A stretch of DNA of 64,000 bases, taken from a candidate division WWE3 bacterium CSP1-7. Its GTDB lineage: Bacteria; Patescibacteriota; WWE3; 9FT-COMBO-53-11. The position numbers and the translations under genes are program-made. Position 1 is the first letter of the stretch. Each line of letters opens with the position of its first letter. Location: positions 153,682-217,681 of the forward strand of contig LDXK01000001.1 in assembly GCA_001443395.1 (NCBI GenBank), in the 5' to 3' direction. This document shows, piece by piece, positions 1,239 through 49,245 of the stretch. The notes under the pieces were generated by a model, which ran no database searches, was not told where the DNA came from, and worked only from the letters and a program-made list of their open reading frames with translations.

Positions 1239-3439
1239 TACTTTGGTAGTTTATCCTTTTTGGACTTTCCTTGAGCGAGAGGTAAAGAGAAGGTGAAGGT
1301 CGACCCTTCCCCTTTCACCGAACTGAACCTGATTTTCCCGCCCATTTTCTCGACAAGCATTCGAGTGATGAAAAGTCCCAAACCGGTTCCCAAAACATCT
1401 TGAGTTTCCTTCGCCCCAACCCGGAAGAATTTTTGGAAAATTTTCTTTTGGACTTCTTCCGGAATCCCGTACCCGGTGTCACGGACCTCCACAATCAGCG
1501 AATCCTCACCGGGTTGACGAAAGGCAGAAATACTAACGGTTCCCTTATCCCGGTTATATTTGATCGCGTTGGTAACCAAATTCATCAAAACCTCTTTGAG
1601 CTTTCCCGGGTCACAGAGGATCTGCGGAGCAACGGTAATATCAGCCGAGAGCTTAATCCCCCTCTCCCGAGCCATTGGAAGAACCTCATTGGCAACCTCG
1701 GCGAGGATTGGAGAAAAATCGTGAGGCTCGGTCTTAGTAACTAGATTTCCGGCCTCCTCGCGGGAAATCTCCAGAAGGTCGTTGATCAGCTGTTTGAGAT
1801 GATCGTTGGCCTGAGACATAAAATCCAGATTCTCTCGAATGTCCCTGGGAAATTTCTCCTTTGCCTCCGAAACCAGACTGAGAAACCCGCCAATGGCTGT
1901 CGCGGGGGTGCGCAACTCGTGGGTGGCGATAAAGAAGAACTCATCTTTAAGACGGGCCACATCTCGGGCCTTCTCCAGCTCTTGTTTTTGAACCTCCCTC
2001 AAGGACCTGGTCCTCTCTCTCACCTTCTCATCCAGAGAGGTGTAGAGTTTCGCGTTCTCCAAGGCAACCCCGGACTCGTGGGAAACGGCTTCCAAAAGGC
2101 TGGTGTCACGAGTGGTGTAGGGATCACCGGAGCCCTTTTCCCCAAGACAAAGGAACGCTTCTATCTTCCCACGCACGCGGATGGGGGAGCAAATGGCAAG
2201 CCCGCTGCGTTTGAGGTTTTCGATCTGCTCCACGGAGGGAGTTCTCTCGGCCATTTCCTCCGTAAGGAGAGGTCCGTCGCTTTTTTCCATCAGTTGGATG
2301 AGAACATGATCGCGCGGAAAAGTTAAGATCTCACGGTCGGAAAGAGTTTGAGCGTAGATAGGGACGAAAATATTCCTCTTTTCGTCCCACAGGAGGAAAG
2401 CGGCTTTTTTGGTTTTGAAAATTTCCGCGATGGTCCTAGTTAATTTGGTCCCAAAATCTCCGACCGAAGTCGCTCGGTTTAAGACCCCGGTAATTTTTCT
2501 TAATGTTTCTACGTAAAGGTAGGTTCCACGGAAGAAAAATCGTTCCGTAACTCGCTGAAAAATCCGGACAGCCTGAATTCCGGCCAAAAACATAACAATC
2601 ACGGTTGCGGCAACGACAAAAGGAGTTAAAGAATTGACTCTCTCAGGTGCAGCCAACTCCACTATTCGAAGGATAAAGAAGTACATTGACGGACCGGTGG
2701 CGGCGATGAGCAACATCGCAATCCCACTCTGGAGGGCGATGCGGATATCAAAAAGTCTATACCTGAGAATCGCGTATGTAACCGGAATCGTCATCAGGAT
2801 TTGGAAAGAAGAAGTTAGGGAGCGAAATCTGAAAATCTCAAATTGCGGGAGCACTACAGAAACAAAAATCCCGCTTAACGTAAATAACCCCAGTCCGATC
2901 CCCAGATATTGGAGCTGCAGTTTATCGAGACCTTTAGACTTTCGGTAAAAACTGGCGATTTTTACCAATCCCCACAGAGCCAAAGTTATAGTAAAAGCCT
3001 GCATCAACTGATAAAGAGGACCTCGCACCGGCCCAACGCCCCCACCGGAAAATTCCACACCCTCCACCGACAATGAACTCAAGGCTAATATTGTGTTTAG
3101 GACCAATAGAACGAGCAATCCGAGAAATAGTTTCTTATTCAACGAGACTCGATATTTTTCCTTCAACGAGTAAGCGAAAAGAAACAACGAACCTGATGTG
3201 AGGGCCGCGGTCGCGTTTATCATTCTCCCCCAGAAAAGAGACGGGCTTAAGGAGAGCATCAAAATAGCAAATGATATTCCTGAAGAGAAAACTACAAACA
3301 ATCCAAAGAAAATTCGGTCCAATTTTCTTCCGCTTCTCACGAGAATGTAAACACCGATAATAATATTGAGGATGAGAATTCCAATGTTAAGTGAAGAAGC
3401 AGCAGACATGTAATTGCATTGTATAAAAAAGGACAGCAA
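1238..3439 (-). CDS. Sensor histidine kinase (multi-TM N-terminus, GAF-like region, HisKA and HATPase_c)
   Basis: H-box FFFIATHELRTPATAI; N/G boxes NLVTNAIKYN and DTGYGIPEE...GTGLGLFI. About 7 N-terminal hydrophobic helices. An alternative start lies at 3409. Confidence 0.85.
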   Translation of the reverse strand: MLSFFIQCNYMSAASSLNIGILILNIIIGVYILVRSGRKLDRIFFGLFVVFSSGISFAILMLSLSPSLFWGRMINATAALTSGSLFLFAYSLKEKYRVSLNKKLFLGLLVLLVLNTILALSSLSVEGVEFSGGGVGPVRGPLYQLMQAFTITLALWGLVKIASFYRKSKGLDKLQLQYLGIGLGLFTLSGIFVSVVLPQFEIFRFRSLTSSFQILMTIPVTYAILRYRLFDIRIALQSGIAMLLIAATGPSMYFFILRIVELAAPERVNSLTPFVVAATVIVMFLAGIQAVRIFQRVTERFFFRGTYLYVETLRKITGVLNRATSVGDFGTKLTRTIAEIFKTKKAAFLLWDEKRNIFVPIYAQTLSDREILTFPRDHVLIQLMEKSDGPLLTEEMAERTPSVEQIENLKRSGLAICSPIRVRGKIEAFLCLGEKGSGDPYTTRDTSLLEAVSHESGVALENAKLYTSLDEKVRERTRSLREVQKQELEKARDVARLKDEFFFIATHELRTPATAIGGFLSLVSEAKEKFPRDIRENLDFMSQANDHLKQLINDLLEISREEAGNLVTKTEPHDFSPILAEVANEVLPMARERGIKLSADITVAPQILCDPGKLKEVLMNLVTNAIKYNRDKGTVSISAFRQPGEDSLIVEVRDTGYGIPEEVQKKIFQKFFRVGAKETQDVLGTGLGLFITRMLVEKMGGKIRFSSVKGEGSTFTFSLPLAQGKSKKDKLPK

Positions 3440-9986: not shown

Positions 9987-10162
9987 GCGGAAGATCCATG
10001 AATCCGTGGAATAATTCCGCGACGGTCGCGCCCTGCCCATTGCCTTTGCCTCGAGAAAACGAAGTAAAGACAACGCGGGTTAGCCTCCAGTAAATTTCGC
10101 GCTTGAATTATTCCTAATACGTTTTCCGGAAGTCCGGTTTCGGACGGGTTTGTTGCACTCTA

Positions 10163-10196
10163 TTGGACGCTCCGATCAAAGCATCGGAGCTAACAA
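10163..10196 (+). repeat. Hairpin-core intergenic element, copy A1
   Basis: TTGGACG|CTCCGAT-caaagc-ATCGGAG|CTAACA. The 7-bp stem is perfect. Confidence 0.7.
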
Positions 10197-10212
10197 ATCT
10201 TGCCACGTTCGT

Positions 10213-10248
10213 TTGGACGGCTTCCGCCTTGAGCGGAAACCTAGTAAT
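10213..10248 (+). repeat. Hairpin-core intergenic element, copy A2 (in tandem with A1)
   Basis: TTGGACGGC|TTCCGC-cttga-GCGGAA|ACCTAGTAAT. Confidence 0.75.
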
Positions 10249-10305
10249 ATCCGCTTTGCGTCTATTGTACTGCCTCTCTCTATTAAGGTTTAATAGGGAC
10301 GGACG

Positions 10306-12141: not shown

Positions 12142-12180
12142 CTAGAAAGAAGGAGCCAACTCAGTTAGAAGTTGGGACAA
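12142..12180 (-). repeat. Second, divergent copy of the last 12 codons plus stop of hrcA
   Basis: The minus strand reads TTG TCC CAA CTT CTA ACT GAG TTG GCT CCT TCT TTC TAG, which is LSQLLTELAPSF*. This peptide is identical to the hrcA C-terminus. The 7 nt differences are all synonymous third-position changes. Confidence 0.85.
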
Positions 12181-12220
12181 TTGGACGGCTCGCTTCGCGA
12201 ACCTAGCATTTATCCCAACT
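12181..12220 (+). repeat. Hairpin-core intergenic element, copy A3, with a tail complementary to hrcA codons
   Basis: TTGGACGGC|TCGC-ttc-GCGA|ACCTAGCATT. Positions 12207..12220 (CATTTATCCCAACT) are the perfect reverse complement of 12247..12260. Confidence 0.8.
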
Positions 12221-12947
12221 AGAAGGATGGGGCTAATTCAGTTAGGAGTTGGGATAAATGTCTAACCTGTGGGACAACCACTGGATAGTTGAGGCGGGCC
12301 GGCCCCAAAACCGCGACCACTCCCCCTTTCTGCCCGTTGCCCCAGTGAGAAAAAACCAAACCGACCGGCTCCAGGTTCGCCACTCCCAGCTCCCTCCCAA
12401 TCAGAACCGTGACCGCTTTGGGATCGGAGGCGCGGGAAAAGAGATCCTGCAGGAGATCAAAACTGTCCAAAAGGTTCAGCGCCGCTCGGGTCACGTTGAT
12501 ATCAAAGAATTCAGGATGCTCCAAGACGTTTTTCGTGCCGGCGTGGAAAACCGTTCCTTCATGTGTGGTGACAATGCCGATGTAGCCGGCGGCTTCCGCC
12601 AGGGCCAGGGCCGCTTCCCGCAGCATCCGCCCGGAACTCTGCCGGTACTGAAAAAGGCGCTGTTTCAGCGCCACTTCCTGCAAAACCGGAATCGCCTGCT
12701 CCTGCATTAATGAGGTCAGGAAATAGCGTAGCCCCAACTCGGAGGGGCGGCGGCCGGCGGAAGAGTGTTCCTTTTCGATAAATCCCTCCCGATGCAGGAT
12801 CGCCATCTCGTTCCGCACCGTCGCCGGCGAGAAAGCAAACTGGCGCTTTTCGGTCAGATCCTCCGAACCGATCGGCTGGGCACCGGCAATAAATTCCTCA
12901 ATGATTGCTTTCAAAATGTCGACCTGTCTCGCAGTGAGTTCCGCCAT
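12219..12947 (-). CDS. hrcA: Heat-inducible transcription repressor HrcA (short form, 242 aa)
   Basis: N-terminal winged-helix signature LTARQVDILKAIIEEF...PIGSEDL...SPATVRNEMAILHREGFIEKEHSSAGRRPSELGLRYFL. Confidence 0.85.
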   Translation of the reverse strand: MAELTARQVDILKAIIEEFIAGAQPIGSEDLTEKRQFAFSPATVRNEMAILHREGFIEKEHSSAGRRPSELGLRYFLTSLMQEQAIPVLQEVALKQRLFQYRQSSGRMLREAALALAEAAGYIGIVTTHEGTVFHAGTKNVLEHPEFFDINVTRAALNLLDSFDLLQDLFSRASDPKAVTVLIGRELGVANLEPVGLVFSHWGNGQKGGVVAVLGPARLNYPVVVPQVRHLSQLLTELAPSF

Positions 12948-12978: not shown

Positions 12979-13030
12979 AAAAGCAAAAATAAACAAACCC
13001 GAAGGGTTAAAATCCGCAACCCTTCGGGTT
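12975..13030 (-). terminator. Rho-independent terminator of the methyltransferase gene
   Basis: AACCCGAAGGGTT...AACCCTTCGGGTT forms a 13-bp stem. On the minus strand it is followed by TGTTTATTTTTGCTTTTTT. Confidence 0.65.
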
Positions 13031-17589: not shown

Positions 17590-17817
17590 ATGCCACACCT
17601 GAAAAGTGCCTACAAAAACCTTCGCAAGAGCCGCCGCAAAACGGTCATCAATCTGAAGGCCAAAAATAACCTGAAGAAAGCTCTCAAGGGACCGCTGACG
17701 CTCAAAACATCCGCCGCGGTCACAAAAGCGATTGACAAGGCCGCCAAACGCGGCATTATCTCCGACAACAAAGCGGCTCGGCTGAAAAGCAATTTGAGCA
17801 AAAAGATTAAAAAATAA
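17590..17817 (+). CDS. rpsT: 30S ribosomal protein S20
   Basis: MPHLKSAYKNLRKSRRKTVINLKAKN... is a typical S20. Confidence 0.9.
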   Translation: MPHLKSAYKNLRKSRRKTVINLKAKNNLKKALKGPLTLKTSAAVTKAIDKAAKRGIISDNKAARLKSNLSKKIKK

Positions 17818-17890
17818 TGGACGGCCGCCTGCGGCGACCTAGATTCGGTGAATGGCCGAATAACGGCCGCCTGCGGCGATCTAACATTTT
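17817..17890 (+). repeat. Tandem pair of hairpin-core elements (A4a 17817..17845, A4b 17852..17890)
   Basis: A4a is ATGGACGGC|CGCC-tgc-GGCG|ACCTAGATT. A4b is ...ACGGC|CGCC-tgc-GGCG|ATCTAACATTTT. The 21-nt core repeats with a 42-nt period. Confidence 0.8.
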
Positions 17891-17901
17891 GAAGAGACAA
17901 A

Positions 17902-18462
17902 ATGGCAGAGCCAACACCCTCGACCGCCAAGGAAAGCATTGAACTCCTTCCTCCTCTAACCAAAACCGGGAAAGCCAAAGTCATCTCCTTTTGGGCGCGC
18001 ACCGCCGGCATTCCTTTGATTATTATTCTGCAGCTGACTTTTTTGGGAATTTTTTCTTTCCGGGCAAAGCTGGGAATGGATCTGTTAAAGCTCTCTACAT
18101 CGGTGGTCGAGAAAGAAAAGATCGTGGCGGATGCCGCCGATTTCGAACAAACCTTCCGCAAAACCCAGCGCAAGCTGGAACAGATCGCTCAGGTCGGGAA
18201 TGGGCTTTGCGTTTCCTGTACCATCGAAACCCTCAACAAAATCAAGCCTGCCGCCGTAATCCTGAACACCCTCAGCTTGGAAGGAGAGAAAATTCAGTTG
18301 ATTGCGGAAACGCCGCAGGGCCTGACTTTCGCCACCTTCGTTACCAACATCATTAAAGATGAAGGAATTCGCGAGGCCCTCATCACTTCAGGGAGCCTCA
18401 ACCGGGAAGGAAACTTTGTCTTCACGATGGAACTGGTTATGGACAAGGACAAGATTAAATAA
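17902..18462 (+). CDS. Single-pass membrane protein, PilN-like (tentative)
   Basis: Short cytoplasmic N-terminus, one TM (IPLIIILQLTFLGIFSF), then an alpha/beta ectodomain of about 130 aa. The architecture resembles the PilN family only; no pilM is adjacent. Confidence 0.35.
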   Translation: MAEPTPSTAKESIELLPPLTKTGKAKVISFWARTAGIPLIIILQLTFLGIFSFRAKLGMDLLKLSTSVVEKEKIVADAADFEQTFRKTQRKLEQIAQVGNGLCVSCTIETLNKIKPAAVILNTLSLEGEKIQLIAETPQGLTFATFVTNIIKDEGIREALITSGSLNREGNFVFTMELVMDKDKIK

Positions 18463-24674: not shown

Positions 24675-24830
24675 AAAAATAGAGTAGCATTTAGAGTGTG
24701 TTTAAATTCGTCCGCGAATCGGGATTGGTGCAGCTGATACTGTTGATCGCAATCGGAGTGATTCTCTATTACAACTGGCCCAAAATCTGGGAGGGAGTGA
24801 TCGTAATTCTCAATAATCTGCAGACGAGAT

Positions 24831-24878
24831 TTAAGCTTTAATCAGACTTCCGACCCGGATCACGTGCTCGACTAGCGC
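24831..24878 (-). repeat. Second, divergent copy of the 3' terminal codons of gap
   Basis: The minus strand reads GCG CTA GTC GAG CAC GTG ATC CGG GTC GGA AGT CTG ATT AAA GCT TAA, which is ALVEHVIRVGSLIKA*. The gap C-terminus is ALVEHVVRVGNLISK*. Of 10 differences in the 13 aligned codons, 8 are synonymous third-position changes. Confidence 0.85.
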
Positions 24879-24882
24879 GTTT

Positions 24883-24940
24883 GAGGACGGCTTGCCTGCG
24901 GCAAACCTAGCTCCGCTGAATTTTGGATACCAAACTAAAC
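24883..24940 (+). repeat. Hairpin-core intergenic element, copy A5, with a long tail abutting the gap stop codon
   Basis: GAGGACGGC|TTGCC-tgc-GGCAA|ACCTAGCTCCGCTGAATTTTGGATACCAAACTAAAC. The tail is about 70% identical to 50052..50090. Confidence 0.8.
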
Positions 24941-25954: not shown

Positions 25955-26217
25955 AGCTGTTCCTCCACCCACCGTTTGAACTCCTCTTTAGGACGGGCGC
26001 CGGTGGTTCGCGCCACTTCCTTGCCATCTTTTTCAATCACGTAGGTGGGGATCGACATCACGCCGTACTTTTGGGCCATCTCACCCTGAGCATCCACATC
26101 GTATGCCACAAATTCCGCCTTGCCGGCGAGTTCTTTTTCCAGCTCCTCAATCGTGGGTTTCATCACATTGCAGGGTGGACACCAAGTCGCCCAAAAATCC
26201 AAAACTTTAACCGCCAT
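25951..26217 (-). CDS. trxA: Thioredoxin-fold protein with a WCPPC active site (88 aa)
   Basis: MAVKVLDFWATWCPPCNVMKP...MSIPTYVIEKDGKEV. The start is set at the internal ATG at 26217. Confidence 0.8.
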   Translation of the reverse strand: MAVKVLDFWATWCPPCNVMKPTIEELEKELAGKAEFVAYDVDAQGEMAQKYGVMSIPTYVIEKDGKEVARTTGARPKEEFKRWVEEQL

Positions 26218-26289
26218 TTCAACTTTAAGATAGCAAAAATAGCCAATAGGAATGCTGTCCGAGCGCAAAACCTGTGTTACGATAATCGC

Positions 26290-28122
26290 GTGGAAGCTCT
26301 TCTCTCCTCCCTAAATCCGCAACAACAGGCCGCCGTCCGCTGCGCCGACGGCCCCTCGCTAATCGTCGCCGGGCCGGGGTCGGGAAAGACCCGCGTCCTC
26401 ACTCACAAAATCGCCCACCTGATTCGAAACGAAGGAATTCCCTCCCACCAAATCCTCGCCGTTACTTTCACCAACAAAGCCGCCGACGAGATGCGCGAGA
26501 GGGTGGAAAAACTACTGAGCGACTCAACGGAGGGACGGCCGGAGTCGTTAATTCCATGGATGGGAACCTTTCATTCCATCTGCGCCCGCATCCTGCGACG
26601 GGAAGGAACGGAGATCGGTATCCCGGCCAGCTTTATCATCTACGACGAAAACGACCAGCGCGATCTCATCAAAGATATTCTTAAATTGATCGGCCGCGGT
26701 GAAGAGCGTTTCTCGCCGGGAGGGGTCTCGGCCGCCATCTCCCAAGCCAAGAACGAAATGATCAGTCCCGAAACATATCAAGAGATGGCGGAAGGAAACT
26801 TTCAACAGGCGGTGGCGGAAATCTATCCCCGCTACCAAGAAAGGGTCAAAAAGGCCGGGGGGCTTGATTTTGACGACCTGCTGCTGGAAACAGCCCGGCT
26901 TTTCCAAGAGCGCCCGGCGATCCTGGCGCGCTGGCAGAAATCTTTCCGACACGTTCTAGTGGATGAATACCAAGACACCAATCGCGTCCAGTACCTGCTG
27001 GTGCGGCTTCTCTCCAAGACCCACCACAACCTTACCGTCGTGGGCGACATGTCCCAAGCAATTTATTCCTGGCGGGGAGCAGACTTCCGGAACCTCCTCC
27101 GCTTTCAACAAGATTATCCCCAAGCGCAGATTTTTCACCTCGCCCAAAACTACCGCTCCACCAAGCGAATTCTCTTGGCGGCGCGCTCGCTAATCGAGCA
27201 CAACCGCACCCACATTCCGCTGGAACTCTGGACCGATAATGAGGAAGGGCTCCCGGTCGTGCTCTACGCCGCGGACAACGAGCTCGACGAAGCCTTCTAT
27301 CTCTCCACGCAAATCTCCGCTCTGCTTTCAAATGGGAACGCCAGGAACTTCACCGACTTCGCCGTCCTCTACCGCACCAACGCCCAATCGCGGGTCCTGG
27401 AAGAAGTTTTTATGCGCGGCGGAATTCCCTACCTCCTGATCGGCGGCACCAAATTCTATGAGAGAAAAGAAGTCAAGGACATTCTGGCTTATCTCCGTCT
27501 CCTGCTAAATCCGCAGGACCAGCTGAGTCGGGAGCGGGCCGAAAAAGTCGGCAAAAGGCGACTCGCTGGCCTGAACGCCTCCGACCGGGACGAGCTGGTG
27601 GCGCTTCCTCCCGCTCAGATGATTCAAAAAATTCTTCAACTCACCGAATACTTGGGATACCTGGATGACGGTTCGGAGGAAGGCCAATCACGGGTCGAGA
27701 ACGTCAAGGAGCTCTCATCGGTCGCCGCTTCCTTTGGGTCCCTGCCGGAGTTCCTTCAGCACGTGGCGCTGGTCCAACCCACCGACGCCCTTTCCCGCCG
27801 GATCCGGCGGGACTCGGTCTCGCTGATGACGCTCCACTCCGCCAAAGGGTTGGAATTTCCCTACGTCTTCATCACGGGGTTGGAGGAGGGATTGCTCCCC
27901 CACGCCCGCAGCTTGGGCAGCACCGAAGAAATCGAGGAGGAACGCCGGCTCTGCTACGTCGGAGTAACTCGAGCGAAAAAACAGCTCCATCTCTGCTTTG
28001 CGCGCGAGCGCCTGCTCTTCGGGTCCCGTTCCGAGAACCTGCCGTCCCGTTTTCTCAATGAGATCGGCGAGGAAAACATGTTGATGCATCTCTCTCAAGG
28101 AGGACTGGCCGATGAGTTTTAA
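26290..28122 (+). CDS. pcrA: ATP-dependent DNA helicase, UvrD/PcrA/Rep family
   Basis: LNPQQQAAV, AGPGSGKTRVL, VDEYQDTN, TLHSAKGLEFPYVF, VGVTRAK. A GTG start at 26290 was chosen; upstream of it the ORF overlaps trx antisense. Confidence 0.9.
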   Translation: MEALLSSLNPQQQAAVRCADGPSLIVAGPGSGKTRVLTHKIAHLIRNEGIPSHQILAVTFTNKAADEMRERVEKLLSDSTEGRPESLIPWMGTFHSICARILRREGTEIGIPASFIIYDENDQRDLIKDILKLIGRGEERFSPGGVSAAISQAKNEMISPETYQEMAEGNFQQAVAEIYPRYQERVKKAGGLDFDDLLLETARLFQERPAILARWQKSFRHVLVDEYQDTNRVQYLLVRLLSKTHHNLTVVGDMSQAIYSWRGADFRNLLRFQQDYPQAQIFHLAQNYRSTKRILLAARSLIEHNRTHIPLELWTDNEEGLPVVLYAADNELDEAFYLSTQISALLSNGNARNFTDFAVLYRTNAQSRVLEEVFMRGGIPYLLIGGTKFYERKEVKDILAYLRLLLNPQDQLSRERAEKVGKRRLAGLNASDRDELVALPPAQMIQKILQLTEYLGYLDDGSEEGQSRVENVKELSSVAASFGSLPEFLQHVALVQPTDALSRRIRRDSVSLMTLHSAKGLEFPYVFITGLEEGLLPHARSLGSTEEIEEERRLCYVGVTRAKKQLHLCFARERLLFGSRSENLPSRFLNEIGEENMLMHLSQGGLADEF

Positions 28123-32036: not shown

Positions 32037-32069
32037 TTGGACGGCCGCCTTAGGAGGGCTAAGGATAAT
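32037..32069 (+). repeat. Hairpin-core intergenic element, copy A6
   Basis: TTGGACGGCCG|CCTTAG-gaggg-CTAAGG|ATAAT. Two more hairpins follow at 32072..32095 and 32095..32127; the second contains CCTCGCTACGCTGCGG, which is related to the 42-nt unit core. Confidence 0.65.
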
Positions 32070-32125
32070 CATTGTTTAAAGCTTCGCTTTAACAAATAAG
32101 CTCCTCGCTACGCTGCGGGTGCTTA

Positions 32126-32155
32126 TTGACATATACCCCCCGGGGGTATTATATT
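32126..32155 (+). promoter_or_regulatory. Sigma70-type promoter (TTGACA-N17-TTATAT) with an embedded CsoR-type operator, ATACCCCC-C-GGGGGTAT (32133..32149)
   Basis: A perfect GC-rich 8+1+8 palindrome fills the -35/-10 spacer. It resembles known CsoR operators (ATACCC...GGGTAT type). Confidence 0.75.
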
Positions 32156-32164
32156 AATGAAGAA

Positions 32165-32209
32165 ATGGACGGCTCGATCAAGCGAGCCTAGCATTTTGAA
32201 AGAACCAAA
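32165..32209 (+). repeat. Hairpin-core intergenic element, copy A7, inside the csoR 5' leader
   Basis: ATGGACGGC|TCG-atcaag-CGA|GCCTAGCATTTTGAAAGAACCAAA. It ends at the csoR ATG. Confidence 0.8.
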
Positions 32210-32473
32210 ATGAAAGCCTCCAAAGAAAGCGTTAAGCGCCGGCTCCAAATCCTCAAGGGACAGCTTGGGGGATTGGAAAAGATGGTCGATGAGGACCGGT
32301 ATTGCATGGATGTTCTTACCCTATCTCTGGCAATCCAGCGGGCGATGAAAGAGATGGACCACTTGATCATGGAAGAGCACATGAACAGCTGTGTCCAGGA
32401 GGGGGTTCGATCCGGCAAATCTAAGGAAGTTACCAAGGAGTTGATGGATCTCTTTGAGGTAATCCGCAAATGA
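32210..32473 (+). CDS. csoR: CsoR-family Cu(I)-sensing transcriptional repressor
   Basis: 87 aa with the LKGQLGGLEKMV motif and the C...H-x3-C ligand pattern (RYCMD...EEHMNSC). Confidence 0.85.
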   Translation: MKASKESVKRRLQILKGQLGGLEKMVDEDRYCMDVLTLSLAIQRAMKEMDHLIMEEHMNSCVQEGVRSGKSKEVTKELMDLFEVIRK

Positions 32474-34825: not shown

Positions 34826-35584
34826 ATGAAAAGATTGATCGGCGTCTCTGCCATCCTCACCGTCCTCCTGTTCTGGGGATCGGTGGTTCTCGCCCAGCCC
34901 GGAAAGGATTTCAGGCTCCCCTCTTCGGCCGTTAAAATCTCCGATGGCCTTTACTATCTCGGCCGCAGTGTTAGCGGCGCCCAGGGGTATGCGATTCTTC
35001 GCTACGCTACCGGATTTGCCAAGCCTGGAGGAAGCGGAGCCGCCCGCGCCCCCAAGTGCTACGGCTTCCTTTCCAAGGGGGCCCGCTGGAAAAACACCGA
35101 GCACTACGTCACCGACATCAACGATCCAGCCACGGAGAATTCGCTGGAAACCTGGGATTCTCGAGTCTCTTTTGACGTCTTTGGTTCACGGGATCCTTCC
35201 GGGTTAGTGGACGGGACCGACACCGCCGCCCCCGACGACAAAAACGAGCTCTACTTCGGCCAGATTGAAGAATCGGGGGTTATCGGCGTCACCACCGTCT
35301 GGGGATACTTCTACGGTCCCACCTTCGCCCGCGAGTTGATCGAATGGGACATGGTCCTGGACAACACGGATTTCGACTGGAGCTTTACCGCAACACCCGA
35401 CCCCACCAAGATGGACTACCAGAACATCCTCACCCACGAGCTGGGGCACGCCGCCGGGTTGAACGACCAATACGACACGACCTGTTCCGAAGCAACCATG
35501 TACGGTTATGGAACCGAGGGTGAAACCAAGAAGCGCGACCTCGCCGCCCCCGATATCACCGGCATCCAAGAACTTTACCGGTAG
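34826..35584 (+). CDS. Secreted matrixin-like zinc metalloprotease
   Basis: Signal peptide, HELGHAAGLND zinc motif, and a downstream Met-turn region (ATMYGY). Confidence 0.7.
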   Translation: MKRLIGVSAILTVLLFWGSVVLAQPGKDFRLPSSAVKISDGLYYLGRSVSGAQGYAILRYATGFAKPGGSGAARAPKCYGFLSKGARWKNTEHYVTDINDPATENSLETWDSRVSFDVFGSRDPSGLVDGTDTAAPDDKNELYFGQIEESGVIGVTTVWGYFYGPTFARELIEWDMVLDNTDFDWSFTATPDPTKMDYQNILTHELGHAAGLNDQYDTTCSEATMYGYGTEGETKKRDLAAPDITGIQELYR

Positions 35585-38427
35585 CGGTCCGCTTCCGAAA
35601 ACTCGCAGATCTGGTTAAAAGGGCACCAGACGCATTGGGGCCCGGGAGTTGCTTCGAAATCACCGCGAGAGATCTTCCGGATCCGTTCCTCAATCTCGGC
35701 CGTTCTTTTCTCAATCTCCTTCTCGCTAAAATTGGCTTCTATCAATTTTCCACCGTCCAAATAAAACAGCGCCACCGACTTGGGAGTAATTCCGAGCGCC
35801 TCTTTCGCCGCCAGGGTGTAGAGGAAAAGCTGGTCATCCTTCTGCGCCTTTTTGAGAAGGTCCCCTTCTTCCTTCTGGGAGGTTTCTCCGCCCTTAAAGT
35901 CGATCAGTTCGAACTCGCCCTTGGCATTTTTGCCAATTCGGTCGATCCGCCCCGCCAGCGTTTTTCCTCCCAGCTTGATCTCAAATCCCTTCTCCACCAT
36001 AAAGGGCGGAAACAGCTTTTGTTGATGTTTCTGGTAGAAATCAGTTAGTAGCTTCTGGCCTCGCTGGAAGTAAGCTTCTTTTTCCTTCCGTTCGCGGTAG
36101 CCTCCGCTGAGAAAATGCTCCCGGTACATTTTCAAGAATTGGCCCAAGGAAACTGCTTCTCCATTGATCCGCCGCATCTCGAACTCCCGCAGAGTCTCAT
36201 GTAGGGAAATACCGAAACTCGTGGGAGGGGTGGGCGGAGCCGGCAGCCGCAACACGTATTTGTAGCGATATCGCCACGGACAGGTCTCGTAGTCGCTGAG
36301 TTGGGAGTAAGAAAGCTTTTCGGGAATCAGGAGCTTGAGATCCGGCTCCCTCTTGGCGGATTCCCTGACCGCGGGGATCTCTGCCTGAATTCCGGCCACC
36401 CGTTCGATTCCACTCAGGGCGGGGACTTCCACTCCCAATTCCAGGATAAAGGGTGAGGGCCGCTTCTCTTGGACGCCGCCGTAGCTCTTGGCGTAGGAAA
36501 GAAAAAGCCGCTCCGAAGCCCGGGTGGCACCCACGTAAAAGAGGCGCCGCTCCTCCTGCTGATGCCCCGCCTTCGCCAGGGCTTCGACGGGCAAGTCCTT
36601 TCGGCTCCGACTGAGATATCTAAACTCTTTGACGAAGTGTTCGGGAAGTTCCAGGGCGACAGAGCGTTGGCGAGTCGGGAAACGGTCGGCCGTGAGCGAA
36701 ACCATAAAAACCACCGAAAACTCCAAACCCTTAGCGGCGTGGGTCGTCATCAAATTGATCGTGTCCACATCCTCGATCACCGCCTGTGCCGGCGATTCCC
36801 CCGCTTCGATCAAAAGATCCAGATAGTCCACCAGCTCAGGGACATTGGGCTCCTTAACCTCCGTCTCAAACTGCTGAATTTTTTGGAAGAATAGGGCAAT
36901 GTTTTCAATCTTGAGCTGGTTTTCGAGGGTGGGCGGTTCTTCCAGGTTCTTGATGTAGCCGCTCTTTCGCACGAAATCAAAAAGGAGGTGCGAGGGGGAA
37001 ACTTTAAACGCATCCTTCGCCAAATCGCGAATTACGTCCAGGGCTTTGATTTTCTCGCGCGTTAAGATCTCAACAAACGGGGTACTTTCTTTTTGAGAGG
37101 TTGCCAAAAGTTGGAGGGTTCGTTCGGGCGAGATTTTGAAGGCCGGAATGTTTAAAACCTTGTACCACGAGATGTTGTCGGCGGGATCTTTGATCACGCG
37201 CAGGACCGCCAAAAGAGCGGCCACCTCCTCTTGCTCAAAGAGCCCGCGATTACCGACGATTTGGAAAGGAAGTTCGTGCCTCTTGAGCGCCGCCACAAAC
37301 GGGTCGAGATGGGCGTTGGCGCGCGCTAAAATCGCAAAATCGGAGAAGTTTTTTCCCTCGGTGTTCACCAACTCCACAATTTTTCTCAAAACTAACTCGG
37401 TTTCCTCTTCCGCCGATCTCGCGTATAGTAAAACGGGGTCGGGTCCGGTCTTGAGAGTTTTGAGATTTTTTGAGATATTTTTGAGACTTACTTCCAGACG
37501 ATCGGGGTTGTTGTTCTTTATCATCTGGTGCGATTTTTGCGCCAGTGTATCGGTAAGACGATAGGATGTGTTGAGAACCGATGTTCGGCAATCGGGGTAG
37601 GCTTTCTTGAACTCCAGGATGTTGGAAACGCTCGCTCCGCGCCACTTGTAGATCGCCTGGTCATCGTCGCCCACGACGGTCAAGTTACTTAGGTTACTTG
37701 AGTTACTTTTGTTACGAGATGGGACAAGAAGTTTGATGAGGGAGAACTGGGCGGAGTTGGTGTCTTGGAACTCATCCACGAAAATGTGAGTGAACTGATC
37801 TCGGTAGCGCTTGAGGATGCTCGGCCTATCATTGAATAATTTTATTGTCCATATAATGAGGTCGCCAAAATCCAAGTAAGAGTTCTTTAAAAGCAGTCTC
37901 TGGAACGCTTCATAGACTCGAGCAAGCTCAACCTGCTTTCGCATTTCTTCTTTTTCCTCTTTACTGCTCGCTGTGTGCCTTAAGCCGTTCACCCACTGCA
38001 AATAATTTTGCGGTGTCACCTCTTCATCCTTGGCACGGGAGAAAAGATTGAGCAGAGCGCTCAAGAATTTGGTCGGATTTCCCAGCGGGCGGTAGTAATC
38101 AAGGGGAAGATCGTAGAGGTGTCGCCGCAGGAGCAACCAGGCTTCCGGTTCGGAAAGGATTTTGTAAGCCGGGTCCATTCCAATCTCCAAACCTTCCTGG
38201 CGGAGAACCCGATCGCAGAAAGAGTGGAAGGTGGAAACCCATGGCGGTTCATAACCAAGCGGCATCGCCTCATCCAATCGTCCCAGCATCTCTTGGGACG
38301 CTTTATCGGTAAAAGTTAAAGCCAGAATACGAGAGGGATCGATCCCCTTCTCCAAGAGCCGGCGGATCTCGCTGGTGATGAAGGTAGTTTTTCCTGTCCC
38401 CGGTCCGGCAACGACAAGTCTAATCAT
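35575..38427 (-). CDS. UvrD-type helicase fused to a C-terminal PD-(D/E)XK (Cas4/AddB-like, 4-Cys) nuclease
   Basis: VAGPGTGKTTF, VDEFQDTN, TTHAAKGLEFSVVF, VGATRA. The C-terminus has CPWRYRYKY...D..IDFK...CVWCPFNQIC. Confidence 0.8.
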   Translation of the reverse strand: MIRLVVAGPGTGKTTFITSEIRRLLEKGIDPSRILALTFTDKASQEMLGRLDEAMPLGYEPPWVSTFHSFCDRVLRQEGLEIGMDPAYKILSEPEAWLLLRRHLYDLPLDYYRPLGNPTKFLSALLNLFSRAKDEEVTPQNYLQWVNGLRHTASSKEEKEEMRKQVELARVYEAFQRLLLKNSYLDFGDLIIWTIKLFNDRPSILKRYRDQFTHIFVDEFQDTNSAQFSLIKLLVPSRNKSNSSNLSNLTVVGDDDQAIYKWRGASVSNILEFKKAYPDCRTSVLNTSYRLTDTLAQKSHQMIKNNNPDRLEVSLKNISKNLKTLKTGPDPVLLYARSAEEETELVLRKIVELVNTEGKNFSDFAILARANAHLDPFVAALKRHELPFQIVGNRGLFEQEEVAALLAVLRVIKDPADNISWYKVLNIPAFKISPERTLQLLATSQKESTPFVEILTREKIKALDVIRDLAKDAFKVSPSHLLFDFVRKSGYIKNLEEPPTLENQLKIENIALFFQKIQQFETEVKEPNVPELVDYLDLLIEAGESPAQAVIEDVDTINLMTTHAAKGLEFSVVFMVSLTADRFPTRQRSVALELPEHFVKEFRYLSRSRKDLPVEALAKAGHQQEERRLFYVGATRASERLFLSYAKSYGGVQEKRPSPFILELGVEVPALSGIERVAGIQAEIPAVRESAKREPDLKLLIPEKLSYSQLSDYETCPWRYRYKYVLRLPAPPTPPTSFGISLHETLREFEMRRINGEAVSLGQFLKMYREHFLSGGYRERKEKEAYFQRGQKLLTDFYQKHQQKLFPPFMVEKGFEIKLGGKTLAGRIDRIGKNAKGEFELIDFKGGETSQKEEGDLLKKAQKDDQLFLYTLAAKEALGITPKSVALFYLDGGKLIEANFSEKEIEKRTAEIEERIRKISRGDFEATPGPQCVWCPFNQICEFSEADRYR

Positions 38428-39371
38428 TCAATCTTCAAAACCGATACTTCCCGCGGTTCTTGCTCGAAAGAGGCGAACTTCAGGGCCACTATGATCCGAT
38501 AGACCAGGGCAAAAAAGCCGACGGAGGTCCAAGAAAAGACCGGGGTCAAGAAGAGAAGCGAGAGCGCCACTCCAACCGTGGTTGCGAGGGGAAGGAAAGG
38601 AATGTAGGGCTCAAGCATGTCTTCCAGATCACTGGTGAGTTGGGCAGTGAGGGGCTGGCGCAAACTCTCGGCGAGCTTCTTGGGCGTGGAGATATCCTGC
38701 GGATTTAGCAAAATCCCATACTGCCGCTCCAGAATTTCGAGCACGCCGCTCTTCTCCAGCTCGGTGAGAAACTGCTGTTCGGTGAATTGTTCGTTCCCCA
38801 GCTGACTTTGAACTTGATTGATCACCTGATTGACCACCAGATTCAAGGCCGGTGCCAGAACTCCCTCCGGAATATTGAAGCGCGTTGGGAGTGGAAGCTG
38901 GGAAGAAAAATAGACCAGAATCCCAACGGAGAAAACAAAAATCTGGAAAAAACGACCAAAGGAGTTAGGAAACATCCGCGCCAGGAAAATCGAATGAGTT
39001 GCCACGGTTCTCTTCGCCGTATAGTCCAAGATCAGTAAAGCCGCCGCATAGACCAGCGACACCAGGAAAACAAACTCGAGAGGAATATCTACCGGGATGG
39101 GAGGGAGGAGAAACGGGATGCCAAAAGCGAACGCGCCGGCCACCACCGCTGCCATCCGGACGGTCGTCTTGGTCGTGAGAGCAAGAACTACAAAGAAAGA
39201 GCTGGAGAGGAAGAACGCCAGAAACAACGGCACCAAACGCACTCCAAGAGAAGATGCTAACCCCGGACCTCTGGCGAAAATTGCCGCTAAGGAAAATCCC
39301 AACCCAAGACTTCCCAAAATCACCAGCAACAGGAGAAAGGCAATTCTAATGCGGACGGGAATTTTATCCAT
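38424..39371 (-). CDS. Polytopic membrane hypothetical protein
   Basis: 315 aa with about 8 hydrophobic helices. ATGA-type overlap with the downstream helicase gene. Confidence 0.55.
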   Translation of the reverse strand: MDKIPVRIRIAFLLLLVILGSLGLGFSLAAIFARGPGLASSLGVRLVPLFLAFFLSSSFFVVLALTTKTTVRMAAVVAGAFAFGIPFLLPPIPVDIPLEFVFLVSLVYAAALLILDYTAKRTVATHSIFLARMFPNSFGRFFQIFVFSVGILVYFSSQLPLPTRFNIPEGVLAPALNLVVNQVINQVQSQLGNEQFTEQQFLTELEKSGVLEILERQYGILLNPQDISTPKKLAESLRQPLTAQLTSDLEDMLEPYIPFLPLATTVGVALSLLFLTPVFSWTSVGFFALVYRIIVALKFASFEQEPREVSVLKIE

Positions 39372-40294
39372 TACTTCTTCGGCTTCGCCTCCAGATCCTT
39401 AAGTTGATTCAGCTTGCCCAGAAGGGTCGAGAAAGAATTTAGCAAGCGGTCCATATTCGCCTTAGCATCTGAGAGTTGGGAAGAGGCCCGCCGCAGAAGT
39501 TCGTCAAAATCAAGGGCGTCTTTGGCGACCGCGTGCAGCATTTTTAAAATGTCCTCGGCCTGGTCGGCGAAACGTTCTCGTTGCAATCCCAAAAGGATCG
39601 ATTGAATCGTCACCAAGAAGGTCTGGGGAGAGGTGAAGAAAACGCGCTTCTCCAGGGTATAGCGCATCAGCTCCCCATCCGAAACAACCTCTTGAAAGAT
39701 CGGTTCGAAAGGGATGTACATCAGCGCAAAAGGAACCGTTCCCTCCTGCGGCAGGATGTAGCCGGCGGTTTCGTCCATTTTCTGTTTCACATTTCTAACA
39801 AATGTCTTCCAGATACTCGCCCTCGCCGCCTCATCCTTTTCGGCGGCGAATTTTTGGAAATCTTCGACCGGGAATTTGGAATCGACCGGAATTGAACCCT
39901 GGCGGGTTTTGATGAGGGCGTCCACTCGCGCTCCGGTCTGGAAAGTAAACTGCCGCTCATAGGCCGCCTGCGGCAAGACCTGATGAAGCAGGTCCTCCAA
40001 CACCATCTCCCCGACGTTGCCCCGCAGCTTTTGGGAACGGAGAGAAGCCTGAAACTCTTGAAGTTGGTTGGTAACCTCTTTTACGCCGCCAATCTCGGTC
40101 GTAACCGAGTGCAGGCGCTCGTCCAGGGAACGCAGACTCGCCCCAAGTTCACCCTTGTGCAGCTCCAATCGCTGCAAAATCTCCTCTCCGCGCAGAGAAG
40201 ATTCCAATTGGCGGAGGTGTTGGAACAGGAAAATTAGGACTCCCAAAACCGCCAGAACCAGAAAAACAATTAAAACAGTCAGGAAAATCTCCAC
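39371..40294 (-). CDS. rmuC: DNA recombination protein RmuC
   Basis: N-terminal TM plus coiled-coil, and C-terminal VDSKFPVEDF...FALMYIPFEPIF, typical of RmuC. Confidence 0.8.
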   Translation of the reverse strand: MEIFLTVLIVFLVLAVLGVLIFLFQHLRQLESSLRGEEILQRLELHKGELGASLRSLDERLHSVTTEIGGVKEVTNQLQEFQASLRSQKLRGNVGEMVLEDLLHQVLPQAAYERQFTFQTGARVDALIKTRQGSIPVDSKFPVEDFQKFAAEKDEAARASIWKTFVRNVKQKMDETAGYILPQEGTVPFALMYIPFEPIFQEVVSDGELMRYTLEKRVFFTSPQTFLVTIQSILLGLQRERFADQAEDILKMLHAVAKDALDFDELLRRASSQLSDAKANMDRLLNSFSTLLGKLNQLKDLEAKPKK

Positions 40295-45753: not shown

Positions 45754-46674
45754 ATGCTTTATCGTTTTCTCAGAAATGTGATTGAAAGTGCCCGCCCTCG
45801 GCAGTGGCTTAAGAACCTCGCTCTCTTTGCGGCTCCCTTCTTCGGGGCGGAAATTCTGAACGCCGGAGTCCTGCCGCGGCTGCTCACCGCCTTTGTAGTC
45901 TTCTCCCTCCTTTCTTCGTCCGCTTACATTTTCAATGATGTGATCGATGTCGAAAAAGATCGCCGGCATCCGATCAAGAAGAATCGGCCGATCGCCTCCG
46001 GCCGCTTCTCGCCCTTGGCGGCCCGCACCACGGCGGCGGTCCTTGCGATCGCCACTCTCTTCTTCGTCGCCGCAAACTTCAATCAATACTTCCTGGGAAC
46101 CGCAATTGCTTTCGTTGCCCTCCAGCTAAGCTACAGTCTCTGGATTAGAGATGTCATTATTGTCGATGCGCTCTTGGTGGCGGCGGCCTTTGTCCTCCGG
46201 GTCTACGCCGGCGCTTTTGTTCTGCCTACTTCAATTTCCGCTTGGCTGGTGCTGTCAACCATCGGACTCTCCCTGCTGTTGGCTTTCGGGAAAAGAAGAA
46301 GCGAGCGCACCCTGCTTTCCAAGCTCCATCAACGCCTGCTCACCCGCGCCACTCTTCGCCACTACCCCGACACGCTCTTGGATTCGATGATTGCGATGTC
46401 GGCGACCTACACCACGCTGGCCTACTCGATTTTCACTTTCGGAACGGCTGGATCGAAGTTTCTCACCGATCTTCTGCCGGAAACTCTTTCTTCGCCGAAA
46501 TGGGCCCTCCTGACGGTTCCTCTGGTGATCTACGGAGTCGCCCGCTACCTCTATATTATCTACGAGAAGAAGGAGGGAGAATCACCGGAAAAAGTAATCC
46601 TGACGGATACACCGATCCTGGGAACGGTGGTCGCCTGGGTCCTCGCCAGTTTTGTCATCCTCTACCTAATCTAG
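45754..46674 (+). CDS. UbiA-family prenyltransferase (decaprenyl-phosphate phosphoribosyltransferase-like)
   Basis: RPRQWLKNLALFAAPFF and NDVIDVEKDRRHPIKKNRPIASG. Confidence 0.8.
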   Translation: MLYRFLRNVIESARPRQWLKNLALFAAPFFGAEILNAGVLPRLLTAFVVFSLLSSSAYIFNDVIDVEKDRRHPIKKNRPIASGRFSPLAARTTAAVLAIATLFFVAANFNQYFLGTAIAFVALQLSYSLWIRDVIIVDALLVAAAFVLRVYAGAFVLPTSISAWLVLSTIGLSLLLAFGKRRSERTLLSKLHQRLLTRATLRHYPDTLLDSMIAMSATYTTLAYSIFTFGTAGSKFLTDLLPETLSSPKWALLTVPLVIYGVARYLYIIYEKKEGESPEKVILTDTPILGTVVAWVLASFVILYLI

Positions 46675-47738: not shown

Positions 47739-47791
47739 GGCTTAAGTTTAACAAACGGAGTTTGCTAGATCGCTGAAGGCGGTCGTCCAAA
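47739..47791 (-). repeat. Hairpin-core intergenic element, copy A8 (minus orientation), with its tail ending at the PEGA gene start codon
   Basis: The minus strand reads TTGGACGAC|CGC-cttca-GCG|ATCTAGCAAACTCCGTTTGTTAAACTTAAGCC, followed by GTG. Confidence 0.7.
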
Positions 47792-48480: not shown

Positions 48481-48503
48481 CTAGGTCGGCGGCGGCCGCC
48501 CTA
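48481..48503 (-). repeat. Degenerate hairpin-core element in a 24-nt convergent gap
   Basis: Compare the minus strand TTAGGGCGGCCGCCGCCGACCTAG with copy A4a, ATGGACGGCCGCCTGCGGCGACCTAG. It overlaps the stop codon of the 48501 gene. Confidence 0.45.
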
Positions 48504-49118
48504 ATCCCGGTAATTCTGGGCGTTCTCCAACCGCTCCATAAACCAGTTTATTGATTTGTTCCATCCGGTTCCGTTCGCGACCGAAACGGGGGCGTATTTC
48601 ATCATGATCTGCTCCACCGTCACCAAACCCTGATCAATGTAATTTCTTTTTATCCCCCGCGCGACCGCGGTAATCCCCTCTTCCCAGTTAGAGAAACAAA
48701 GGGTTCCGCGAGAGTGGATTCCCCAACCCCAAGCGTTATAGCAATCGGGCGGAGTAACCCGGCCAAACAGGGATTCGTTGCCGGAGATTGCGGTCAAAAG
48801 CCGCCAATCTAATCGGTACTTTTCCGAAACTTCCAAAATAAAATTCGTGTAGGGCACCAGCGGGGAGTGGTAGGAAGCAAGGAACCTCCGCAAGATAATC
48901 GGGCGAGCTCCCTCCGCGACCACGCTTTCCCCCAGCACAATCCCCTCCGGCGGCGGGCTGGTGAAAATAGCCGAACCGGCCGTTGGCAATTCAATAAATT
49001 TATCGGGAGAGGAAGAAACTAAAATAGCGGCGGTCGAAAAAAGAGCTACGAGAGAACTGCTCGCAAAAAACAAAAGAGGTAGTGCTATAAGTATCGCTCC
49101 CCTAGGCAGGGATTTCAT
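48501..49118 (-). CDS. Secreted/anchored putative peptidoglycan hydrolase (lytic-transglycosylase-like)
   Basis: N-terminal TM. RLDWRLLTAISGNESLFG resembles the catalytic E-S region of an SLT domain. Weak call. Confidence 0.35.
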   Translation of the reverse strand: MKSLPRGAILIALPLLFFASSSLVALFSTAAILVSSSPDKFIELPTAGSAIFTSPPPEGIVLGESVVAEGARPIILRRFLASYHSPLVPYTNFILEVSEKYRLDWRLLTAISGNESLFGRVTPPDCYNAWGWGIHSRGTLCFSNWEEGITAVARGIKRNYIDQGLVTVEQIMMKYAPVSVANGTGWNKSINWFMERLENAQNYRD

Positions 49119-49245
49119 TGGCAGGCCAGGGAGAGTTTCACTCCCTGCTAGGGAGATAGCGATCCAGAAATCGCATCCTCCCGATGGGGCAGCATTTCTA
49201 CCGTACCAAAAATGTAATCAGGATTGCAAGTCGGCGTTGGGCGGG

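Follow-up and report, generated by a model that had tools for sequence, protein, structure and literature searches.

Small palindromic cassettes, plausibly inserted as mobile units, at gene boundaries in a lineage of WWE3 bacteria

This report concerns a family of short hairpin elements dispersed between the genes of a 64,000-nucleotide (nt) stretch of contig LDXK01000001.1 of the candidate division WWE3 bacterium CSP1-7; the whole of that stretch is called the window here. We lean towards reading them as small palindromic cassettes that have been inserted as units, make up a lineage-specific family of the kind represented by repetitive extragenic palindromic (REP) sequences and miniature inverted-repeat transposable elements (MITEs), and are cotranscribed with their neighbors as hairpins at the ends of mRNAs. 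The unit is 40–60 nt long and is laid out as X, GAC, an inner GC-rich hairpin (GGC...ACC), TAG, X′, a loop and a second X, with the unit bounded on either side at the end of X. In the main subfamily, the place of X is taken by the local sequence of the translation start, an A-rich run plus ATG or sometimes TTG. Such a unit sits directly after an existing start codon and ends in a purine-rich loop resembling a Shine–Dalgarno (SD) sequence and a new ATG that continues the gene. In other subfamilies, X is (GC)AAAAG with a U-rich X′, or another short word, and the copies follow stop codons in either orientation.

The case for insertion comes from sites that are empty in one genome and filled in a relative. 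These were found by anchoring on the downstream coding sequence, automated BLAST of the flanks having given mostly tandem-unit artefacts. Upstream of rpsS, locus L033 is empty and reads ...GAAGAAACG ATG AGT; L059 and L088 have a 42-nt unit directly after the ATG there, and about 1.5 units are present in L053. Among the filled genomes, three different inner stems are seen at this one site, next to a coding flank that is 88–99% identical. At tuf, L107 is empty, with the arrangement TTGACA-17-TAAGAT-13-ATG, and L045 has two units between that ATG and a new one. Between mraZ and rsmH, L094 has a unit directly after the ancestral ATG. In L069, that ATG is still the start in use, and a different unit, with G(T/C)TAACAG repeats on either side, follows the mraZ stop. 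Between rpsD and rpoA, L024 is empty with a TAATG overlap, and L042 has an antisense double unit flanked by (C)TCAAG. The rpsT locus holds 0, 1 or 2 units across four genomes: the empty L008 reads GAAATAATG GCA, and the window reads ATAATG-GAC...AAAATG GCA. Three unrelated loci share one 43-nt unit without a single difference, and one 47-nt pair differs by 1 nt. Tandem arrays differ in size between samples, with three units versus two in L054 and L085. The initial annotation of the window, made from the sequence alone, had proposed a likeness to REP sequences or to bacterial interspersed mosaic elements (BIMEs), and this is borne out by the extragenic position, both orientations, tandem copy-number variation, presence or absence at orthologous sites and identical units elsewhere.

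Some of these loci have further peculiarities. The EF-Tu promoter of L107 (L107:9540–9650 compared with L045:5830–6020) lies 13 nt from the ATG with no SD sequence; this suggests that in this lineage a highly abundant protein is translated almost without a leader. In L094 (5830–6000), the mraZ stop is mutated from TAA to CAA, and the frame reads through the element hairpin to stop at its conserved TAG. Duplications of coding sequence occur beside units: a 92-nt tandem that includes 13 glycyl-tRNA synthetase codons (L069:6780–7040, minus strand), 21 nt of the rplP 5′ end (L059:1880–1950) and 18 nt of the rpsI 3′ end (L024:5660–5740).

Both the tandem pairs and the location at gene boundaries had been pointed out before, and they are as described; every window copy is intergenic. 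Among 123 left flanks, 66 are ATG, 20 TTG and 16 AAG, and 88 of the 123 have the form NTG. The terminal ATG (or TTG) opens the downstream open reading frame (ORF) in 45 of 87 unique copies. An SD motif precedes the relic ATG in 23% of cases; for real starts the figure is 22% and for random NTG 14%, a comparison that is not decisive. Sense copies begin 0–20 nt past the upstream stop codon, often as TAATG-GAC or TGATG-GAC, and the next start is reached 17–21 nt later. Antisense copies lie about 12 nt past the stop of the opposite-strand gene, as at hrcA and gap in the window (copies A3 and A5 below). Ribosomal-protein operons have copies between rpsM and rpsK and in rplP-rpmC-rpsQ, and an antisense copy between rpsD and rpoA. 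Copies are also found 9–10 nt after tRNAs, with both orientations inside one tRNA cluster. Clusters are mostly direct tandem repeats (the pairs A1+A2 and A4a+A4b of the window, L054, L131), with a few tail-to-tail pairs (L069, L079, L112), and the ORFs between inverted copies are ordinary genes.

The hairpin is a maintained structure with conserved flanks, as the initial annotation had supposed. The whole-structure covariation score is 0.478, versus 0.167 in shuffles (none of 500 reach it) and at most 0.093 with slid partners. In the inner helix, 88.6% of positions are paired, and 6 of 7 pairs show double-sided changes. A conserved C.A mismatch had also been claimed, correctly: it occupies the third base pair in 26 of 39 copies. 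That site is a helix position, because the other copies put paired bases there (U-A in 7, C-G in 4, G-C in 1, U-G in 1). The conserved flanks are likewise present, but they are narrower than had been thought. The invariant part is limited to GGAC and (C)TA(G); the TT or AT ahead of GGAC and the CATTT after TAG are not fixed and belong to a covarying outer helix, X:X′. This helix was not used in finding copies, is 80.8% paired and has double-sided changes at 4 of 6 pairs. The usual X is AAATG and the usual X′ CATTT; the variants are AAAUG:CAUUU, GCAAAAG:UUUUUGC, CAAUAG:CUAUUG and GGAAUG:CAUUCC. A test of the outer helix by permuting partners did not exceed its control, because the consensus flanks are themselves complementary, whereas the column-wise covariation test did support the helix. 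From the outer-helix covariation it follows that the conserved nucleotides form a 3 × 3 internal loop, GAC opposite UAG, between helices of arbitrary sequence. The distance from GGAC to TAG is 15–23 nt, with a mode of 17–18, and reaches 36 nt in L065 with the flanks unbroken. That the inner length varies while the flanks stay intact argues for recognition of the folded form. The L065 copy (2813–2871, minus strand) has a second GC hairpin nested inside the loop of the first. The stems had been called hypervariable. They are less so than that word implies, since a few classes recur among the 87 unique contexts: TCGC/GCGA and CGCC/GGCG dominate, and GCTCTG/CAGAGC, GCGATC/GATCGC and GGTCGCC/GGCGACC are recurrent minor classes.

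X′ has a choice of partners. It can pair with the left X, giving one long hairpin, or with the right-hand X, giving a second, A/U-rich hairpin of the form CATTTT-loop-AAAATG, in which the purine-rich, SD-like loop is GAAGAAAC or one that contains AGGAGG. When the second hairpins are anchored on the ORF start only, the first five positions outward from CAU:AUG are 96–100% Watson–Crick paired, and 154 of 184 cells are paired, versus 136.8 ± 2.8 with partners permuted. At UUG starts, CAA pairs with UUG (CAAUC with GAUUG). The minimum-energy RNAfold structure is the first hairpin plus the second for start-type units and a single long hairpin for A3. Three features had escaped the initial annotation: insertion exactly at ATG, the outer helix, and the second hairpin with the start codon in it.

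The family was traced with a covariance model, R1, built from 39 unique related copies. In the window, searched with filters off, R1 finds seven copies at E < 0.05 plus A5 at E = 0.33; of these eight, seven are on the plus strand and one is on the minus strand. A relaxed scan for box, hairpin and box gives six matches in the window, against about 0.7 in 30 shuffles. A metagenome scan with the pattern TGGACGGC-N9-14-ACCTAGCATTT matched at least 112 contigs. R1 produced 207 matches in 749 kb made up of WWE3-like contigs, the loci L007–L009 and the window. Loci of more distant Patescibacteria and Chloroflexi, 172 kb in all, yielded no match with an E-value under 0.9. The family is therefore lineage-specific. 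To place the relatives, MurJ of the window is 83% identical to that of a Patescibacteria metagenome-assembled genome (L007), 76% to WWE3 RBG_19FT_COMBO_53_11 (L008) and 63% to another such genome (L009); contigs near-identical to the window are present in aquifer and sediment metagenomes. The window, which is the less biased sample, has a copy in roughly every 8 kb, and contigs fetched by the element pattern have one in roughly every 4 kb. In IMG/VR there is one match, a single copy at a contig end, which says little about carriage by viruses. No Rfam family overlaps any element at the gathering threshold or at E ≤ 5, and only tRNA-Cys reaches its gathering score. Our literature search found no description of such repeats in WWE3 or in the candidate phyla radiation (CPR).

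We propose that the GAC/UAG internal loop, set on a helix of any sequence or length, would be the recognition site of a protein that sees a folded single strand, and that units would spread by copy-and-paste beside a word complementary to X′. X′ might act like a guide, as in IS200/IS605 ends under a trans-acting HUH enzyme, or might simply form a helix. Microhomology-mediated template switching could be another route of spread, and it would fit because the flanking repeats vary in length from 3 to 21 nt. An inserted unit would be cotranscribed to give a stable hairpin at the 5′ or 3′ end of the mRNA together with a standardized ribosome-loading loop, and would thereby alter the expression of the genes it flanks. 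As to transcription, at least six independent cases have a canonical −35/−10 promoter whose end lies 8–12 nt upstream of TGGAC in the element: TTGACA-18-TATATT at A7 in the window, TTGACA-17-TAACAT at tuf in L045, and others in L036, L034, L090, L112/L095 and L052/L058. Since these promoters end just upstream, the element should be the extreme 5′ end of those mRNAs, A7 included. Judging from these adjoining promoters and from the places inside ribosomal-protein operons, copies are certainly transcribed with their neighbors.

Several observations weigh against insertion cassettes. The flanking direct repeats of 3 to 21 nt are unlike a fixed target-site duplication. GTG-GAC flanks are scarce (2 of 88), and several copies, such as A3 and A5, have no right-hand X. 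The copies show no bias with respect to local GC skew (45 versus 44) of the sort expected for lagging-strand, single-stranded DNA transposition, in a comparison confounded by gene strand. The initial annotation saw no transposase or integrase gene in the window; likewise, no Y1/HUH, integrase or transposase Pfam match was found at E ≤ 1e-5 among about 58 window ORFs scanned, and about ten housekeeping ORFs in the 13–25 kb region were covered only by precomputed Pfam labels from the near-identical locus L001. For Y1/HUH genes in the related loci, about 1.1 Mb in total, the one search was by tblastn with a RayT sequence of E. coli; it gave no match, which is weak evidence of absence. The pattern used to fetch related contigs demands CATTT, so start-type copies are over-represented among them. 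The orientation counts, 45 sense versus 19 antisense copies in co-directional gaps, are approximate, as the gene calls in related loci come from a home-made codon-bias caller. Finally, the core of A3 and its adjoining flanks (TTGGACGG...CCTAGCATTT) are identical in L008 and L009, in which MurJ is only 76% and 63% identical; this 100% conservation looks like purifying selection on a function and not like selfish turnover. With A3 perfectly conserved across diverged genomes, at least some copies would therefore be under purifying selection, and its conservation makes a domesticated RNA role likely for part of the family.

The alternative that survives best makes the element a nonmobile cis-regulatory RNA module of the host. 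The GAC/UAG loop would bind an RNA-binding protein or guide an endoribonuclease, possibly RNase Y-like; polycistronic RNA would be divided up by the module, which would also shield the 5′ and 3′ ends so formed, and the alternative pairings of X′ would gate translation initiation. Much of the anatomy can be read this way: the start codon lies in the second hairpin with SD-like purines in its loop, the two hairpins are the predicted minimum-energy structure with z-scores of −2.3 to −4.4, and canonical promoters put the transcription start just ahead of the element. The excess of sense over antisense copies, the preference on the sense strand of the outer helix for G.U (19) over A.C (8), the lack of change in A3 between diverged genomes and the presence of an RRM-type protein encoded in the window, though unconnected to the element, point the same way. 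However, antisense copies occur within essential operons and tRNA clusters, close relatives differ in presence or absence even at tuf and ribosomal-protein genes, and unrelated loci carry identical units. The inner helix, moreover, has G.U in only 2 of 234 cells outside the C.A position, and C.A is G.U on the opposite strand. As a full account of the family, a host RNA module is possible without being probable; it fits beside insertion cassettes as a secondary, domesticated role.

A more specific form of the insertion reading, which we regard as rather doubtful, is a guide-directed mini-transposon of ultra-small CPR genomes, in which X′ would base-pair with a 5–7-nt target, mostly the A-rich start context with its ATG. 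A trans-acting enzyme, recognizing the GAC/TAG loop in a folded single strand, would paste the unit after the start codon, and the hairpin, purine-rich loop and ATG of the unit would take the place of the gene's initiation region. We do no more than infer a guide–target role for X:X′, a plain structural helix giving the same pattern. If such guidance were real, leaderless or stop–start-coupled genes, such as tuf and ribosomal-protein genes, would become hairpin-led, and the family would amount to a mobile, self-healing ribosome-binding site (RBS) cassette that rewires expression genome-wide.

Another alternative is that the copies are intrinsic, partly bidirectional terminators or attenuators of unusually conserved sequence, directly followed by the ribosome-binding region of the next gene. 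Many copies do lie 0–20 nt after a stop, with antisense ones about 12 nt after an opposite-strand stop; the AAAAG subfamily reads as A-tract, hairpin, UAG and U6-7; and the A3 hairpin has about 20 paired positions directly after hrcA. In the main type, though, UAGCA stands between the stem and the U run, and the antisense RNA has GUCCAA after the stem. Ordinary intrinsic terminators with no conserved flanks, the outcome that the initial annotation had named as fatal to its idea, are not what the copies are, given an invariant GGAC and TA(G) and a main type with no adjacent U tract. The genome has ordinary U-tract terminators at 52652–52683 (plus strand) and 13030..12986 (minus strand), so the organism is independent of the element family for termination. 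Copies also occur in 5′ leaders after promoters and within ribosomal-protein operons, where efficient termination would do harm. Terminators are thus an improbable identity for the family.

Still less credible is a sigma-70-type promoter with TGGACG as −35, a spacer of 16–17, TAGCAT as −10, an A-rich upstream tract and a short leader, the palindrome being incidental. It would account for the modal GGAC-to-TAG distance of 17–18 nt, for TAGCAT as a fit to TAnnnT, for the TAG-to-ATG distance fixed at 17–21 nt and for copies in divergent gaps that face a gene, as A8 does. But tRNA and several protein genes use a canonical TATAAT or TAAAAT −10, some with a TTGACA −35, and canonical promoters stand directly upstream of the element itself. 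The spacing ranges from 15 to 36 nt with intact flanks. The supposed −10 changes with the outer helix (TAGTTT, TAGATT, TATCTA, TAACAA, TAGCAA), and its CAT covaries with the start codon. Copies run antisense into hrcA, GAPDH and rpsD, and three covarying helices are left unexplained.

Integron attC-like sites separating gene cassettes, which had been offered as an option on account of conserved flanks around a variable, structure-conserving palindrome between ORFs, can be dismissed, since the neighbors (rpsT, murJ, lepA, gap, pgk, hrcA, ribosomal-protein operons) are housekeeping genes in synteny, the short units (25–45 nt as measured for this comparison) lack R″/L″-L′/R′ boxes, no tyrosine recombinase is found among the window ORFs scanned, and tandem units have no ORFs between them. 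Other identities were rejected as well. The boxes do not fit sigma-54, extracytoplasmic function (ECF) sigma, sigma-32 or CIRCE motifs by inspection. A mini-ORF or upstream ORF reading ATG GAC GGC ... TAG has no conserved frame, as the frame shifts with the inner length (11–14 nt) and many flanks are TTG or AAG. A K-turn or tandem sheared G.A motif is excluded by the symmetric GAC/UAG loop, which has no GA/AG tandem. In the Tas-associated TIGR arrays, as described (PMC12045711), edge repeats and loop repeats of 8–12 nt alternate, spacers are 9 nt long, and a Nop-domain gene lies alongside. That description rules them out here, where the units are scattered over gene boundaries and have variable parts that pair with themselves.

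Taken one by one, the window copies listed in the initial annotation are at the positions given there, and for A1, A2, A3, A4a, A4b, A5, A7 and A8 the sequences and stems read as it described. A1 and A2 are a tandem pair on the plus strand bounded on both sides by the direct repeat TCTATTG. The A1 unit (10159..10215; R1 E = 0.046) has this repeat at 10159–10165 as its left flank. Its core at 10163–10193 is TTG-GAC-GCTCCGAT-CAAAGC-ATCGGAGC-TAA, and its second hairpin at 10194–10215 is CAAA...TTTG, whose TTG is the left flank of A2. The A2 unit (10213..10267; E = 0.005) has the core TTG-GAC-GGC TTCCGC CTTGA GCGGAA ACC-TAG at 10213–10244 and the second hairpin TAATA...TATTG at 10245–10267, terminating in TCTATTG. 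The ortholog of A2 in L008 has another stem.

A3 (12171..12219, plus strand, core 12181–12206; E = 1e-7) is in a convergent gap and makes the long bipartite hairpin GTTGGGACAATTG-GAC-(GGCTCGC TTC GCGAACC)-TAG-CATTTATCCCAAC. Its end coincides with the stop codon of hrcA (minus strand, 12219–12947). By RNAfold, it folds with −19.2 kcal/mol on the plus strand and −28.0 kcal/mol (z = −6.4) on the hrcA strand.

A4a and A4b follow rpsT, which encodes S20, on the plus strand. The A4a core (17817..17842; E = 3e-7) is ATG-GAC-GGC CGCC TGC GGCG ACC-TAG, and its ATG overlaps the rpsT stop TAA as TAATG. A connecting hairpin at 17843..17861, ATTCGG-TGAATGG-CCGAAT, leads to A4b (17862..17904, core 17862–17884; E = 0.001), which reads AAC-GGC CGCC TGC GGCG ATC-TAA. 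The second hairpin of A4b, at 17885–17904, is CATTTT-GAAGAGAC-AAAATG, with the ATG at 17902 starting a gene for a protein of 186 amino acids (aa). The three-hairpin layout after rpsT (17817–17904) recurs in L009, L022, L042 and L130 with other inner stems. The units of this locus share one stem within each genome and therefore evolve in concert. In RNAfold predictions for the locus, the 5′ arm of the first unit pairs with the 3′ arm of the second (−39 kcal/mol, z = −4.4).

The A5 core (24883..24910, plus strand), GAG-GAC-GGC TTGCC TGC GGCAA ACC-TAG, has no second hairpin. It is 30 nt past the stop of GAPDH, a minus-strand gene, and follows an uncalled plus-strand ORF of 38 aa at a distance of 42 nt. 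That ORF (24725–24841), with the hydrophobic product (M)VQLILLIAIGVILYYNWPKIWEGVIVILNNLQTRFKL, is in a 264-nt gap between two minus-strand genes. If it is real, A5 is a sense-oriented 3′ copy.

A6 (32037..32074, plus strand) had been counted as a full copy and is better called a degenerate relative. It reads GATTATTG-GAC-GGC-CG-CCTTAG GAGGG CTAAGG-ATAATC-ATTG and retains the 5′ half only (X, GAC, GGC, hairpin, X′), with no ACC-TAG and no R1 match at E < 10. A7 (32165..32212, plus strand, core 32165–32191; E = 7e-5) is ATG-GAC-GGCTCG ATCAAG CGAGCC-TAG, followed at 32192–32212 by the second hairpin CATTTTG-AAAGAAC-CAAAATG. Its ATG at 32210 starts a csoR-like gene. The plus-strand promoter TTGACA-18-TATATT at 32126..32155 ends 9 nt before the ATG-GAC of A7 and is upstream of this csoR-like repressor gene (32210–32473) and a DUF1573 gene; a CsoR-type operator, ATACCCCCCGGGGGTAT, lies in its spacer at 32133–32149, outside the element.

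A8 (47752..47790, minus strand; E = 0.007) has the core TTG-GAC-GAC CGC CTTCA GCG ATC-TAG at 47790..47765 and the hairpin CAAAC-TCC-GTTTG at 47764..47752, and sits in the divergent gap upstream of a PEGA/SH3 gene (46671–47738, minus strand). Of two degenerate copies that had been suggested, the one at 48481..48501 (minus strand) may be what is left of a CGCC/GGCG-type copy after deletion of its loop, GGGC-GGC CGCC GCCG ACC-TAG; it has no R1 match and overlaps the stop of a minus-strand gene for a 205-aa protein. The other, at 49118–49152, is not a member.

The genes around the copies in the window are housekeeping genes, namely rpsT, murJ, lepA, gap, pgk, hrcA, groES/EL, metG and helicases. 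A 100-aa RNP-type RNA-binding protein with an RRM_1 domain (E = 1e-25) is encoded at 57063–57365 (plus strand). No other product of the window is an obvious candidate for RNA binding, but nothing connects this protein with the elements. At 35575–40294 (minus strand), an AddA-like helicase-nuclease (UvrD plus PD-(D/E)XK), an unannotated 315-aa ORF and RmuC stand in a row, and there is a second UvrD/PcrA gene at 26071–28122. ARAGORN calls a "tRNA-???" with a 2-nt anticodon at 54751–54824 (plus strand), inside the ORF 54743–55192, and Rfam scores it as tRNA-Sec-like at 24.8 bits against a 47-bit threshold; the call is probably spurious.

With genomes of about 1 Mb, CPR bacteria (Patescibacteria) are considered streamlined, with few repeats and few regulators. 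In such a genome, a dense family at the start sites of EF-Tu, S19, S11 and L29 would be a major, unrecognized determinant of mRNA ends and translation starts. If X′ acts as a guide, it would provide a simple, testable rule of target selection. The covariance model is a marker for the lineage, and for gene callers there is a warning that an ATG before GAC is a relic start.

Among known systems, lineage-specific terminator hairpins, such as the mycobacterial TRIT and the paired DNA-uptake sequences of Neisseria, are alike in being a recurring conserved hairpin downstream of genes. They differ in that the main type here has no adjacent U tract, is found in 5′ leaders as well and varies its stems around a conserved internal loop. 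The ends of IS200/IS605 elements and the gene-less palindrome-associated transposable elements (PATEs) share the hairpin with a conserved irregularity, the seamless empty sites, the short sequence at the hairpin foot complementary to a flanking word (the target or cleavage word there, a putative one here), and insertion directly 3′ of that word. Against that, our family has a unit of 40–60 nt with a single GC hairpin, word X at both ends and a variable repeat length; no TnpA was found here by the weak RayT tblastn search or the Pfam search of the window, and no strand bias was detected. The Correia elements of Neisseria (NEMIS) are also small nonautonomous repeats at gene boundaries, cotranscribed as RNA hairpins. 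They change the promoters and the mRNA processing or stability of adjacent genes, and their strain-variable presence counts as a further likeness. They are longer (100–155 bp), with terminal inverted repeats and a TA duplication; start codons are not their target, and they bring no RBS or ATG with them.

With REP/BIME sequences, the family shares short, GC-rich, imperfect extragenic palindromes in many copies, both orientations and clusters; a short conserved word beside a palindrome whose sequence varies by subfamily; and cotranscription with the flanking genes, just past stop codons and between cistrons. The words are different: GGAC on the 5′ side and CTAG on the 3′ side, and the GT(A/G)G head of REP is not found (the reverse strand reads CTAG). 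Clusters are mostly direct tandems here, and alternating inverted pairs in REP. REP sequences are moved by REP-associated tyrosine (Y1) transposases (RAYTs), and none was found here by the weak RayT tblastn search or among the window ORFs scanned against Pfam. In REP genomes, the RAYT gene is usually flanked by inverted REPs. The family also has a second hairpin with an SD-like loop and a start codon, and inserts exactly at ATG. This start-codon-targeted, RBS-regenerating insertion is its unusual feature; to our knowledge, insertion exactly at the start codon with regeneration of RBS and ATG is undescribed for REP- or MITE-type elements. On the whole comparison, the family appears to work most like REP/BIME sequences or small MITEs such as the Correia elements.

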